From assembly GCA_934177485.1 (NCBI GenBank), contig CAKPPF010000005.1, positions 11,241 through 75,240 on the forward strand: a DNA stretch of 64,000 nt, in the 5' to 3' direction. A program made the translations under genes and the position numbers. Every line of letters begins with the position of its first letter. Position 1 is the stretch's first letter. The notes below the pieces were generated by a model. The model did not search any database. It was not told where the DNA came from and saw only the letters and a program-made list of their open reading frames with translations. This DNA is from an uncultured Clostridia bacterium (GTDB lineage Bacteria; Bacillota; Clostridia; TANB77; CAG-508). Positions 36,925-40,784 of the stretch are shown piece by piece.

Positions 36925-37974
36925 TTAATTTTCGGTTTTCTGTTTTTTAAATGTCTCTATGTTTGAAAACTGTTCTATCATCATATCAACACTTTTTTTC
37001 TTTGCAAAAGCTTCTGCTTGTTTTATTGTATAATGAAATAACTTTTCATCACTACTTCCATGTGCTTTTACAACTGGTTTTTTTACACCTAAAAATAAGG
37101 CTCCACCGTATTCTTTATAATCAACAGTTTTAGCAAATCTTTTTATTCCTGGCATTGCTGGAAGTGCAGCAATTGTTGAAAAAAATGATTTTTTTATGCT
37201 TTCTGTTAAAGATTTTTTCACTAATTTTCCAAAACCTTCTACTGTTTTTAAAAATACATTTCCTGTAAAGCCATCACACACTATTGCATCTATTTTTCCA
37301 GAGAATGCATCTCTTCCCTCTACGTTTCCAACAAAGTTAATTCCAAGTTTTTCAGATTCGTTTTTAAGTATTTGATATGTTTCTTTTACTAAATCATTTC
37401 CTTTAGTTTCTTCTGTTCCTATGTTTAGCAAACCAATTGCAGGTTTTTCTATTCCAAAAGTATTTTTTAAATAAATTGTAGCCATTTGTGCAAATTGCAC
37501 TAGATTTAAGGGTTTACAATTTGTATTTGCTCCTGCATCTATTAGCATTAATCTTTTTTTGTAAGCAGGAAGCATTGGTGCCATTGCTGGTCTATCTATG
37601 CCCTTAATTCTTCCTACAAGCAAAGTTGCTCCTGTAAGCAAAGCTCCTGAATTTCCTGCAGAAATAAATACATCACCTTTTCCATCCTTTAATAAATTAA
37701 ATCCTACAACCATTGAAGAATCCTTTTTGTGCTTTATTGCATCTGTTGGTTTGTCTTCCATTGTTACGACTTCTGTTGTATTATATATAGAAAATTTTGG
37801 TGACATTTCTTCTAGTTTATCTTTTCCATAAAACTCTTTTACTTTTTTATTTATAATTTCTTCATTTCCTATTAGCATTATATTTGCTTCAACTTCATTT
37901 ACTGCTTTAACAGCTCCTTTAATTACTGCATCTGGAGCATTATCTCCACCCATTGCATCTACTAAAATAACCAT
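36925..37974 (-). CDS. plsX: Phosphate acyltransferase PlsX
   Basis: MVILVDAMGGDNAP... N-terminus typical of PlsX. 349 aa. Confidence 0.88.
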   Translation of the reverse strand: MVILVDAMGGDNAPDAVIKGAVKAVNEVEANIMLIGNEEIINKKVKEFYGKDKLEEMSPKFSIYNTTEVVTMEDKPTDAIKHKKDSSMVVGFNLLKDGKGDVFISAGNSGALLTGATLLVGRIKGIDRPAMAPMLPAYKKRLMLIDAGANTNCKPLNLVQFAQMATIYLKNTFGIEKPAIGLLNIGTEETKGNDLVKETYQILKNESEKLGINFVGNVEGRDAFSGKIDAIVCDGFTGNVFLKTVEGFGKLVKKSLTESIKKSFFSTIAALPAMPGIKRFAKTVDYKEYGGALFLGVKKPVVKAHGSSDEKLFHYTIKQAEAFAKKKSVDMMIEQFSNIETFKKQKTEN

Positions 37975-38122
37975 GTATTGCCTCCTGTTATTATATTAAG
38001 TTATAATAATATCTATGAATATGTATAATATTTTATTATTAAATAATTAAAAAATCAATACTTTTTAAATATTTAAAGGTATTAAATTATTTTTAAAATT
38101 GGGATTTATTTTTGAATTAAAC

Positions 38123-38449
38123 TTAAATTAATAATAGTCTAGCTGCATGCCAAACTCTTTGAATTATAATAAAATTAGATCTAATTTCATATATTATTCT
38201 ATATTGTTTAAAAATAATTTCACGTATATTTTTGTTATTATATTCTAAAACTTTTCTTCCCATATATGGCATAACAGTTAAGTTTGTAGTAATTTTTACT
38301 ATTTTATTAATTGTTTTTAAAGAATAATAAATTGAATCTCTTGAAATATAATTATAGATTGAATATAAATCTGCCTTAGCATTTTTTGACCATATTACTT
38401 TTACCAAATATTTCTTCCAGTACTTCCTCTGTAGTATAGTATTCCGCAA
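38123..38449 (-). CDS. ParE/RelE-superfamily toxin, copy 1
   Basis: YRIIYEIRSNFIIIQRVWHAAR C-terminal signature. Overlaps the upstream antitoxin ORF. Confidence 0.65.
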   Translation of the reverse strand: MRNTILQRKYWKKYLVKVIWSKNAKADLYSIYNYISRDSIYYSLKTINKIVKITTNLTVMPYMGRKVLEYNNKNIREIIFKQYRIIYEIRSNFIIIQRVWHAARLLLI

Positions 38450-38591
38450 TACCGTTTTCTTCCTCTTTATGTTGTAATTCTATTGAGGCTATAATTATAT
38501 CTGATTCAGCTAAATTAGGATTATCGATTATTTTCTGTAATTCTTTTATTGTTTTGCTTCTGTAATATAAAATTTTTTCTTCATTGCTCAT
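38376..38591 (-). CDS. Putative antitoxin, copy 1 (71 aa)
   Basis: MSNEEKILYYRSKTIKELQKII.... AAAGGAG RBS. Immediately upstream of and overlapping the ParE-like toxin. Confidence 0.55.
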   Translation of the reverse strand: MSNEEKILYYRSKTIKELQKIIDNPNLAESDIIIASIELQHKEEENGIAEYYTTEEVLEEIFGKSNMVKKC

Positions 38592-38641
38592 AACATCAGC
38601 TCCTTTTGAATGGCATTTAATAATTTAATACCTTTTAAAGT

Positions 38642-38669
38642 ATTATATATTATTTTTTCTATTTGTCAA
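38642..38669 (-). promoter_or_regulatory. Consensus sigma-A promoter (TTGACA-16/17-TATAAT) driving TA cassette 1
   Basis: Minus-strand reading: TTGACAaatagaaaaaataataTATAAT. Confidence 0.55.
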
Positions 38670-38775
38670 TATTGGCTTAGTACTAAGTTAAAAAGATTAA
38701 ACAGATACACGACATATTACCTACATTTTGTAATATTTAAAGGTATTAAATTATTTTTAAAATTGGGATTTATTT

Positions 38776-39102
38776 TTAAATTAAATTTTTAGAAATTAAT
38801 CTTCTAGAATGAAATATTCTTTGAATGTAAATAAAACTTTCTTTTATTTGGTATATAATTCGATAAGATTTATAAATCAACTCACGAATATATTCTTCAT
38901 TATACTCTGGTACTTTCCTGCCCATATAGGGCAACAAATCCAAGCCTAATATTTTTTCTCCAATATTTTCTTTTGTTTTTACAGCATAATATATAGAATT
39001 TAATTTTATGTATTCAAATATTTGTTGAATATCAATGTTGGCATCATCTGAAATTATAATAATACTGTTCTTATCCAAATACTTCCTCGAATGTATGTAC
39101 AT
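38776..39102 (-). CDS. ParE/RelE-superfamily toxin, copy 2
   Basis: YRIIYQIKESFIYIQRIFHSRR. Paralogous to 38123..38449. Confidence 0.65.
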   Translation of the reverse strand: MYIHSRKYLDKNSIIIISDDANIDIQQIFEYIKLNSIYYAVKTKENIGEKILGLDLLPYMGRKVPEYNEEYIRELIYKSYRIIYQIKESFIYIQRIFHSRRLISKNLI

Positions 39103-39244
39103 TTCCTAATTCATAGTTTTTGTTACCTAGTTCAATTGATGCTATAATTATATCTGATTCATCAATAGTCTCATCTCTAATTATTTTTCTCAGTTCTTTT
39201 ACTGTTTTGCTTCTGTAATATAAAATTTTTTCTTCATTGCTCAT
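39071..39244 (-). CDS. Putative antitoxin, copy 2 (57 aa; below the ORF-track cutoff)
   Basis: Manual translation gives MSNEEKILYYRSKTVKELRKIIRDETIDESDIIIASIELGNKNYELGNVHTFEEVFG. Same RBS and promoter as copy 1. Overlaps the toxin start by 32 nt. Confidence 0.55.
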   Translation of the reverse strand: MSNEEKILYYRSKTVKELRKIIRDETIDESDIIIASIELGNKNYELGNVHTFEEVFG

Positions 39245-39294
39245 GACATCAGCTCCATTTGAATGGCATTTAATAATTTAATACCTTTTAAAGT

Positions 39295-39322
39295 ATTATA
39301 TATTATTTTTTCTATTTGTCAA
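39295..39322 (-). promoter_or_regulatory. Duplicate of the TA promoter (TTGACA-N16/17-TATAAT) driving cassette 2
   Basis: Sequence is identical to 38592-38690 over ~90 bp. Confidence 0.55.
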
Positions 39323-39352
39323 TATTGGTTTTAGTATTAGGACAAAAAATTA

Positions 39353-39399
39353 GGCAGACATGTATAGGTAGGTCTTGTGCCTCCCATTTTCGCCCTACA
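39353..39399. repeat. Module-A repeat, degenerate long variant, copy 6, fused to modules E and C (39405-39528)
   Basis: ggcagacatgtataggtaggtcttgtgcctcccattttcgccctaca. Confidence 0.65.
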
Positions 39400-39535
39400 A
39401 TACATAAGAAAAGTGGCTTCGCCACACTTTTCTTATCGCCGATTTGAGTTTCCGAATAAAATGAGAAAATCTCAAAGGCAACAGCGATTATAGCATTTTT
39501 GTTGAATAGAAAAATCTTTGATTTTCCTATTCAAC

Positions 39536-39567
39536 AAAAAAGACGACTTTTAAGTCGTCTTTTTTTA
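39536..39567 (-). terminator. Rho-independent terminator after tuf
   Basis: aaaaagacgactttt-aagtcgtcttttttt. Confidence 0.7.
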
Positions 39568-39581
39568 TTATAAGCTTTTAA

Positions 39582-40784
39582 TTAAGCAATTATTTCTGAA
39601 ACTATACCAGAACCAACTGTTCTTCCACCTTCACGTATAGCGAATCTTAATCCTTTTTCTATAGCAATTGGTGTGATTAATTCGATAGTCATTGAAATAT
39701 TATCTCCTGGCATTACCATTTCTGTTCCTGCAGGTAATTCAATAACACCTGTAACGTCTGTTGTTCTGAAGTAGAATTGTGGTCTGTATCCATTGAAGAA
39801 TGGTGTATGTCTTCCACCTTCTTCTTTGGTTAATACATAAACTTCTGCTTTGAATTTTGTGTGTGGATGTATTGTTCCTGGTTTTGCTAAAACTTGACCT
39901 CTTTCGATGTCTTTTCTATCAACACCTCTTAATAGAACACCTATGTTGTCTCCTGCTTCTGCTTGATCTAATAATTTTCTGAACATTTCAACACCTGTAA
40001 CAACTGTTTTTGAAGCTTCTGATTTTAATCCAACCATTTCAACTTCATCACCAACTTTTACAACACCTCTTTCAACTCTACCTGTTGCAACTGTTCCTCT
40101 ACCAGTAATTGTGAATACGTCTTCAACTGGCATTAAGAATGGTTCGTCAACTGGTCTAGATGGTGTTGGTATATAACTATCAACAGCGTCCATTAATTCT
40201 TTCATGCATGCATATTCTGGAGCATTTGGATCTGTAGATGTACTTTCTAGTACTTTTAATGAAGATCCTTTTATAACTGGTATTTCATCTCCTGGGAAAT
40301 CATAGCTTGATAATAAGTCTCTAACTTCCATTTCAACTAAGTCTAATAGTTCAGGATCGTCAACCATATCACATTTATTTAAGTAAACAACTATATATTT
40401 AACACCAACTTGTCTAGCAAGTAATATATGCTCTCTTGTTTGAGGCATTGGTCCATCAGCTGCTGAAACAACTAATATAGCACCATCCATTTGAGCAGCA
40501 CCTGTAATCATGTTTTTAACGTAGTCAGCATGTCCTGGGCAGTCAACGTGTGCATAGTGTCTGTTTTCTGTTTCATATTCAACGTGAGCTGTATTAATTG
40601 TGATTCCTCTTGCTTTTTCTTCTGGAGCTCCGTCGATTTGATCGTAAGCTTCATATTTAGCTTTTCCTAATAATGATAAATATTTTGTAATAGCGGCTGT
40701 TGTTGTTGTTTTTCCATGATCTACGTGACCGATTGTACCGATATTAACATGTGGTTTTGTTCTTTCAAATTTAGCTTTTGCCAT
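39582..40784 (-). CDS. tuf: Elongation factor Tu
   Basis: [17 protein letters not shown] and NKCD motifs. 400 aa. Confidence 0.97.

Follow-up and report, generated by a model that had tools for sequence, protein, structure and literature searches.

Tandem ParE-type toxin-antitoxin cassettes of an uncultured Clostridia bacterium carry a co-varying inverted repeat that may join the ends of their mRNA

The 64,000-nucleotide (nt) stretch analysed here (contig CAKPPF010000005.1, positions 11,241 to 75,240, from an uncultured Clostridia bacterium; hereafter the window) carries two toxin-antitoxin cassettes between tuf (39582-40784, minus strand) and plsX (36925-37974, minus strand). The cassettes are ~650 base pairs (bp) each and lie head to tail on the minus strand. 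The conserved segment at the 3′ end of each cassette is the reverse complement of its 5′ untranslated leader, an inverted repeat that the original prediction for this locus had missed. From sequence comparison, we place at about even probability the reading that this repeat lets the 5′ and 3′ ends of the mRNA pair into a helix.

Results

Layout of the two cassettes

The features of the cassettes, from the tuf side to the plsX side, are:

39295..39322, minus strand: promoter of cassette 2, TTGACA-16-TATAAT, 12/12 consensus
39272..39291, minus strand: 5′ arm of the inverted repeat, cassette 2, TTAAAAGGTATTAAATTATT
39071..39244, minus strand: antitoxin 2, 57 amino acids (aa), shortened family form; open reading frame (ORF), no library match
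38776..39078, minus strand: ParE-type toxin 2; PF05016, E = 2e-12
38736..38755, minus strand: 3′ arm of the inverted repeat, cassette 2; begins 21 nt past the toxin stop codon
38642..38669, minus strand: promoter of cassette 1, TTGACA-16-TATAAT, 12/12 consensus
38619..38638, minus strand: 5′ arm of the inverted repeat, cassette 1
38376..38591, minus strand: antitoxin 1, 71 aa; AlphaFold2 (AF2) model with four helices, predicted local distance difference test (pLDDT) score 85.6
38123..38407, minus strand: ParE-type toxin 1, 94 aa from TTG 38407; PF05016, E = 4e-18; AF2 model and Foldseek
38072..38091, minus strand: 3′ arm of the inverted repeat, cassette 1; begins 32 nt past the toxin stop codon

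The original prediction had described two ~650-bp units with the same consensus promoter, each with an antitoxin ORF (71 and 57 aa) overlapping a toxin ORF. This anatomy is borne out: both promoters match all 12 consensus positions, and the antitoxin ORFs are present at 38591-38376 and 39244-39071. Its extent of 38123-39322 was too narrow, as the repeated unit spans 38062-39358. Both cassettes have a GGAG ribosome-binding site, and the likely TTG start of each toxin gene overlaps the end of the antitoxin gene. The ribosome-binding sites, described earlier as identical, differ by one base in this strain (AAAGGAG and AATGGAG). For toxin 1, the ORF finder gives 108 aa from TTG 38449, and gene calls on metagenome contigs give 94 aa from TTG 38407. 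For toxin 2, the start is TTG 39078, overlapping the antitoxin stop codon, or alternatively ATG 39102; metagenome gene calls are 100-102 aa long, and 72 aa in some strains. In the 5′ arm of cassette 2, the perfectly complementary 17 nt start 6 nt past the -10 box, at the predicted transcription start. Cassette 1 has its 3′ arm immediately upstream of the plsX promoter region.

The two cassettes share direct repeats at 38475-38705 and 39128-39358 (84% identity) and at 38062-38124 and 38726-38788 (94%). In a sliding comparison, identity is 95-100% between the -35 box and roughly codon 17 of the antitoxin gene, 50-75% across the remaining coding sequence and 90-100% over the last 65 nt. The identity profile is a mosaic, with near-identical upstream and downstream segments around diverged coding regions as predicted. 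The toxins are 48% identical, within the 45-50% estimated earlier.

An inverted repeat conserved across the cassette family

The sequence TTTAAAGGTATTAAATTATT occurs four times in the window, at 38072, 38619 (minus strand), 38736 and 39272 (minus strand), against 0.27 copies expected by chance. An inverted repeat with arms of 14-23 nt is present in every related cassette with enough flanking sequence, ~24 distinct cassettes in all; contigs that end before the 3′ arm (L033, L036, L041, L042, L043, L053 and L055) were left out of this count. One arm lies immediately past the -10 box. The 3′ arm starts between 18 nt before and 59 nt after the annotated toxin stop codon, mostly 6-59 nt after it. 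A promoter scoring 11-12 of 12 is found at the equivalent position in 18 of 22 cassettes.

The repeats score 12-21, compared with a mean of 9.7 and a maximum of 14 for shuffled flanks. The arm sequence varies by lineage (AAGGTATTAAATTATT, TATAAAGATATTAAAATA, GTATAAAAGTATTAAA and ATTTGCAGGATATTAAAT, and AAATCATAAAAGTGTTAG in the most divergent member), and the two arms match within each cassette, including the lineage-specific flanks. Co-variation was measured on 21 aligned arm pairs, counting a 20-pair helix, with 500 shuffles. Paired cells make up 91.2% of the alignment, compared with 40-50% for slid partners and 80% for the shuffles, and 13 of the 20 helix pairs change on both sides. The observed value is beyond all 500 shuffles on four of five co-variation measures; on the fifth, further pair types, 3 of 500 shuffles attain it. 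L056, the most divergent member, carries a perfect 18-nt repeat whose core is changed in both arms. The repeat is kept even where the antitoxins match the family profile at only E = 8e-5. Similarity between the arms ends sharply at the helix edges and never reaches the -10 or -35 boxes; a copy of the promoter in antisense orientation at the 3′ arm is thereby ruled out. To our knowledge, no conserved inverted repeat bracketing ParDE systems has been described.

Mismatch pattern, helix position and transcript ends

Mismatches within the repeat are of a particular type. Among those flanked by at least 3 matches on each side, 6 are G·U or U·G, none is A·C and 1 is of another kind. At the helix edges, where no selection is expected, 6 G·U mismatches compare with 7 A·C. 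By comparison with related cassettes, all six wobble mismatches can be read as A-to-G changes on the sense strand. The helix starts 5-7 nt past the -10 hexamer in 14 of 22 cassettes and 0-3 nt past it in six more. In predicted full-length RNAs of 530-605 nt, the minimum-energy fold contains the end-to-end helix, with a pair probability of 0.85-1.0 in 21 of 22 runs.

A terminator scan after both 3′ arms in the window found nothing terminator-like. The promoter of the next gene follows the 3′ arm directly in L020, L024, L025 and L027 and lies within ~10 nt of it in L021, L023 and L026. With no terminator and the next promoter so close, another feature must define the 3′ end. The internal G·U bias, the helix start at the predicted transcript start and the missing terminator together favour a role in RNA over one in DNA.

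A local hairpin in the leader was considered as a universal feature and rejected. It is convincing only in L021-L023, L029, L047 and L050; elsewhere it is absent or chance-sized.

ParE-type toxins

Pfam PF05016 (ParE_toxin) matches both toxins (E = 4e-18 for toxin 1 and 2e-12 for toxin 2). A search with the toxins retrieved 86 proteins, all with PF05016, and their source names, where given, are mostly ‘toxin ParE1/3/4’. The AF2 model of toxin 1, built from 32 sequences, has a pLDDT of 90.5. In a Foldseek search with this model, ParE structures fill ranks 1-22 with template modelling (TM) scores of 0.78-0.89; the best matches in the PDB are ParE proteins of Mesorhizobium, E. coli O157 (ParE2), P. 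aeruginosa, V. cholerae, M. tuberculosis and Caulobacter. The TM scores to the ParE structures 6x0a, 5ceg and 5cw7 are 0.85-0.89, compared with only 0.55-0.7 to RelE, YoeB and YafQ. The RelE/ParE fold on which the original prediction depended is therefore present in the toxin 1 model, and the assignment of the locus as ParE-type type II toxin-antitoxin cassettes is upheld by the PF05016 matches and these TM scores. The modelling places toxin 1 in the ParE subfamily, with RelE and YoeB more distant. Homology suggests that the toxin poisons gyrase.

In L001, L004 and L005, the toxin 2 gene (equivalent of window positions 38776-39078) is called at 72 aa with no ParE match, next to an intact antitoxin 2. 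The toxin 2 gene appears to be decaying in part of the population.

An unclassified antitoxin family

The two antitoxins are 60% identical overall, and their N-terminal 40 residues are ~85% identical by eye from the alignment. These N-terminal ~40 residues are common to both cassettes, and the C-terminal part is cassette-specific. The 57-aa form is shortened; most family members have a longer FGKxxMVxxC tail. In the AF2 model of antitoxin 1, helices span residues 3-11, 15-22, 29-45 and 54-62, and there is no N-terminal strand. A word-indexed search of 5.8 billion proteins yielded 31 antitoxin clusters, and a profile search of all 1.84 billion cluster representatives gave 15 antitoxin matches at E ≤ 0.001; the family is very small.

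Searches of Pfam (with the single proteins and 21 members), NCBIfam, PHROGs, PADLOC and a PDB sequence profile gave nothing significant for the antitoxin, and a Foldseek search of the PDB with the antitoxin 1 model gave a best E of 1.9, with no neighbour below E = 1. No ribbon-helix-helix, Phd/YefM, helix-turn-helix (HTH)-Xre or AbrB domain was found, and membership in the ParD, Phd/YefM, RelB, HigA or PaaA2 families was rejected. The original prediction could not name the antitoxin family, and none of the libraries searched names it either. By these searches, the antitoxin belongs to an unclassified family that is new as a ParE partner.

Weak matches give hints only. DUF5092 is matched by 11 of 21 members, at best with E = 4e-4 and short of the curated cut-off, and Rho_N by 2 of 21 (E ~0.01). 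The Rho_N matches and the pattern kTIkELqkII…esDIIIASIE suggest a helix-extended-loop-helix (HeH) motif, as a lead only. In the literature searched, whose coverage is incomplete, no SAP/HeH-type antitoxin is described.

One predicted protein of 59 aa (P0046) fuses the antitoxin N-terminus (MTNEEKIQYYRSKPVEEL) with a stretch that resembles the C-terminal end of a P-type ATPase, the one whose gene sits upstream of the first cassette in L017. P0046 either arose by deletion or recombination or is an artefact of assembly.

Distribution and genomic context

The named genome records with the antitoxin are all metagenome-assembled genomes (MAGs) of uncultured gut Clostridia, for example Clostridium sp. 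CAG:452 and MAGs from rabbit and Hadza samples. No relatives of the family were found in IMG/VR, PLSDB or INPHARED, which cover viral contigs, plasmids and phages. In 11 reference-genome loci with 12 cassettes, every antitoxin homolog has a ParE homolog directly behind it, and the same pairing was observed in further contigs that extend far enough. In three lineages (L045, L046 and L047) the toxin gene is decayed or not called.

At the 11 genome loci, the 4 kb retrieved to either side of the cassettes contain neither plsX nor tuf. Cassettes of relatives in other species occupy unrelated contexts, which makes it plausible that the cassettes were inserted between plsX and tuf, as originally proposed; no empty site was found. 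ARAGORN found no transfer RNA (tRNA) or transfer-messenger RNA (tmRNA) gene in window positions 1-64000, so that such a gene is ruled out as an integration site within the window.

Two cassettes lie 1.6 kb apart on one MAG contig (L017:2364-2844 and L017:4001-4481), with a 281-aa membrane-protein gene between them. Each has its own promoter and inverted repeat. They look like separate insertions and not a tandem duplication. In one other lineage (L050:2154-2606 and L051:1593-2045), a 150-aa gene with a weak match to Y1 transposase (PF01797) directly follows the 3′ arm.

Haplotypes at the plsX locus

Contigs encoding a PlsX identical to that of the window were compared, and three arrangements were found. 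L002, L006, L008 and L013 carry both cassettes, as do L001, L004 and L005, the contigs in which toxin 2 is cut to 72 aa. L012 and L016 carry cassette 2 only, with the junction within the 3′ repeat. L007, L003/L014, L009 and L010 carry cassette 1 only, with the junction in the common stretch of promoter and antitoxin N-terminus. In the single-cassette haplotypes, the C-terminal part of the antitoxin remains with its own toxin. Chimeric antitoxins were found both ways: P0006 has a type 2 N-terminus and a type 1 C-terminus, and P0028 is the reverse.

The junctions inside the repeats and the chimeric antitoxins indicate that recombination between the conserved cassette ends is ongoing. They also point to the antitoxin N-terminus as an interchangeable module. 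The ends and the antitoxin N-terminus are shared, unlike the toxin-binding half and the toxin, which have diverged; joint regulation with separate neutralisation is therefore the probable arrangement. The original prediction explained the pattern by an old duplication with gene conversion, or by two related cassettes at one hotspot, and called for a check for 0, 1 or 2 cassettes at this site. Recombination between the ends is indeed seen, and two and one cassettes occur among the identical-PlsX contigs; the haplotypes do not tell the order of events, and no empty site was among them.

In L003/L014/L028 (OIZL01000590.1 = ERZ1749116 NODE_590), a block that comprises the structured element described below, cassette 1, plsX and acpP is ~98% identical to the window. 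Its upstream neighbour is a response-regulator/HD gene in place of tuf, and the genes downstream differ as well. Either the genome of a close relative has been rearranged here or the assembly is chimeric.

A structured element next to cassette 2

Between the tuf terminator hairpins and the promoter of cassette 2 there is a block of ~140 nt (window 39340-39478, minus strand) with a higher G+C content than the adjoining sequence. It is predicted to form three hairpins (z = -3.6 on the minus strand and -1.6 on the plus strand), with a T-run after the last hairpin and an extended -10 box (TGCTATAAT) just upstream. The block has no Rfam match and is kept in all same-species contigs, even in those with differing upstream sequence (L003, L005 and L013). 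It may be a small RNA gene. It was considered as part of the cassette module and rejected, because it is found in same-species contigs only and is absent beside the cassettes of other lineages.

In L005 and L013, the 21-bp hairpin after the tuf terminator (window 39496-39540) is swapped for another perfect palindrome (TATATAGTAGGAAAT…), with conserved flanks. Rfam gave no match on the whole window at the gathering threshold; a permissive search of 37950-39620 gave chance-level matches only, at the tuf terminator hairpins.

Discussion

A possible panhandle mRNA

We propose the following working model, which we hold at the even probability given above. A very strong promoter would drive a bicistronic mRNA encoding a small all-helical antitoxin, then a translationally coupled ParE-fold toxin. 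The C-terminal half of each antitoxin would neutralise the toxin of the same cassette. Through its first nucleotides, the mRNA would pair with the segment within ~60 nt of the toxin stop codon and form a panhandle. Most likely, this helix would define and protect both transcript ends against 5′ exonuclease and 3′ trimming; alternatively, it could create a processing site for a double-strand-specific nuclease. In Firmicutes, 5′-end-dependent decay by RNase J is impeded when the 5′ end is paired, and 3′ exonucleases are halted by pairing of the 3′ end. With the helix, the length and stability of the transcript would not depend on the neighbouring genome, and expression would be the same wherever the cassette sits, which would suit a module that occurs in many contexts. 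Autoregulation, on DNA or RNA, is presumably the task of the antitoxin N-terminal domain that the cassettes share. Because the four arms in the window are nearly identical, cross-talk is conceivable: in a read-through transcript, pairing of the cassette 2 3′ arm with the cassette 1 5′ arm could close a loop of 97 nt.

Several points weigh against a helix in the mRNA. Of the 22 cassettes aligned or compared, 21 conserve the sequence of the arm core, [AG][AG]TATTAAA. Such conservation exceeds what a structural helix needs and fits a protein-binding site, and the position in the leader is typical of toxin-antitoxin operators. The wobble bias consists of six events (one-sided p ~0.016), and a strand-biased mutation spectrum could contribute to it. 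Inverted repeats that act at the DNA level would explain complementarity and co-variation on their own just as well. The helix is rich in A/U, and its thermodynamic prediction leaves aside folding kinetics and translating ribosomes. Some lineages have a local leader palindrome, one half of which is the 5′ arm. Both the start of transcription and the 3′ end are themselves predictions from the sequence.

DNA operators as a rival reading

The arms could instead be DNA operators through which the antitoxin or the toxin-antitoxin complex represses the strong promoter, with the second copy serving as an auxiliary site for a ~550 bp loop or for cooperative binding. We consider this the main rival to the mRNA helix, about half as probable. 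It would account for the core motif, whose sequence is conserved across nearly the whole family with an invariant TATT, and for a 5′ arm located immediately past the -10 box of a 12/12 promoter that needs repression. The antitoxin N-terminal domain is conserved and exchanged together with the promoter and leader, and the weak Rho_N/HeH-like matches (2 of 21 members, E ~0.01) hint at nucleic-acid binding. The local leader palindrome in a subset of lineages, such as the 10-4-10 one in L022, has the usual form of a toxin-antitoxin operator; it is, however, absent or chance-sized in L018, L019, L031 and L034. The complementarity of 14-23 nt, lineage-specific flanks included, is by general reasoning too long for a domain of ~40 residues. 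The internal transition mismatches are all of the type that a sense-strand RNA tolerates (6 vs 0), and the most divergent member has altered the conserved core in both arms. We also know of no case of a toxin-antitoxin operator half-site after the toxin gene, which counts against operators. A helix in the mRNA and a paired DNA operator are compatible with each other.

A further possibility is RNA-level regulation by a hok-like switch. The mRNA 5′ end would alternate between the local leader hairpin and the helix with the 3′ untranslated region, and the antitoxin N-terminal domain, possibly HeH-like, would recognize the helix or its DNA equivalent. The antitoxin level would then control the stability or translation of a closed-loop mRNA, instead of or besides the promoter. 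We give this version little credence.

Possible mobility sites or a repeat without function

The arms could also be DNA sites of recombination or mobility, either as the ends of a mobile cassette, like Xer-dependent dif modules, or as the repeats of an invertible phase-variable segment. This would fit the unrelated contexts between species, the two cassettes in one 1.6-kb stretch of L017, the end of cassette similarity just beyond the 3′ arm and the weak Y1-transposase-like gene immediately downstream in one lineage. The orientation of the arms alternates along the tandem array, as in dif-module arrays (PMC13141974, PMC6449649). The promoter, however, lies outside the 5′ arm yet at a fixed and conserved distance from it, so that the arms are not the ends of the unit; transposon terminal inverted repeats are ruled out on the same ground. 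A single orientation relative to the promoter was found in all ~50 assembled contigs, which speaks against an invertible segment. The arms have no 11-6-11 dyad layout of Xer sites, no recombinase gene accompanies the cassette, and the family is absent from the viral, plasmid and phage collections. The haplotype junctions lie in direct repeats, as homologous recombination predicts, and a DNA-level role leaves the G·U bias unexplained. We regard mobility sites as improbable, at a slightly lower level than the switch. Chance and readings that have not occurred to us take a similarly small remaining share.

It is very improbable that the repeat has no function, whether it arose by chance in A/T-rich DNA or was left over when part of the promoter-proximal region was copied in inverted orientation: such a genome (~28% G+C by reading of the sequence) has many short A/T-rich repeats and promoter-like matches are barely enriched in the region (20 vs 14.8 expected), but scores of 12-21 against a shuffled mean of 9.7 and maximum of 14, a repeat with compensatory changes in every evaluable cassette and the abrupt stop of arm similarity at the helix edges, never into the -10/-35 boxes, all argue against it.

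Comparison with known systems

The cassettes resemble ParDE and PaaA2-ParE2 systems (3kxe, 5cw7, 5ceg, 6xrw, 7r5a) in that an upstream antitoxin gene is coupled to a ~95-aa ParE-fold toxin and the antitoxin is small and helical with a toxin-specific C-terminal part. They are also chromosomal, occur in multiple copies and decay. They differ in having an antitoxin of no known family, in their restriction to a few uncultured gut Clostridia lineages and in the bracketing inverted repeat.

In the type I systems hok/Sok and AapA1/IsoA1, the toxin mRNA has its 5′ and 3′ ends brought together by fold-back or by long-distance pairing (PMC9841398, PMC8594479). Similarly, the predicted 5′ extremity of the mRNA here is complementary to a segment near the 3′ end in every evaluable cassette, and in some lineages the 5′ arm can form a local leader hairpin, making a switch possible. 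In contrast to the antisense RNA and small membrane peptide of hok and AapA1, the antitoxin here is a protein and the toxin a 94-100 aa ParE, and the ribosome-binding site lies outside the helix. No antisense RNA gene was seen, though no search aimed at one was made, and there is no antisense promoter copy at the arms. The relation to hok and AapA1 would be one of functional analogy, not of membership.

In Acinetobacter plasmids, dif modules place toxin-antitoxin or resistance genes between inverted pdif (XerC/XerD) sites (PMC13141974, PMC6449649). The cassettes share with them a small toxin-antitoxin module between short inverted repeats, an alternating orientation and varied contexts. They differ in their chromosomal Clostridia loci, the RNA-like mismatch pattern, the promoter outside the module and the missing 28-bp XerC-spacer-XerD layout. 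Membership among dif (pdif) modules was rejected on the dyad (no 11-6-11 layout in the arms) and on the promoter outside the 5′ arm.

In rRNA operons, the flanking sequences pair over a long distance to form processing stalks, and this helix sets where the mature RNA begins and ends inside a longer read-through transcript. The repeat described here would likewise form a long-distance flanking helix; unlike the stalks, it is only ~14-23 bp, A/U-rich and located around an mRNA. Involvement of RNase III at the helix is a conjecture by analogy.

Regulation of type II systems is understood almost wholly as promoter autoregulation and antitoxin proteolysis, and pairing of the mRNA ends is a hallmark of type I. 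In the literature searched, whose coverage is incomplete, no 5′-3′ pairing is described for a type II system. The locus is real and, as a ParE toxin-antitoxin pair, ordinary; it stands out by its unclassified antitoxin and by the family-wide co-varying repeat that would close the mRNA. The one-cassette, two-cassette and chimeric haplotypes in human gut populations provide a natural experiment that separates the regulatory and toxin-specific halves of the antitoxin, and they make cross-talk and insulation between paralogous toxin-antitoxin pairs directly testable. If the mRNA is indeed closed by the repeat, protein-antitoxin modules would also use mRNA architecture, be it for context insulation, terminator-free end definition or stability control, and the cassettes would offer the design of a compact, portable expression insulator.

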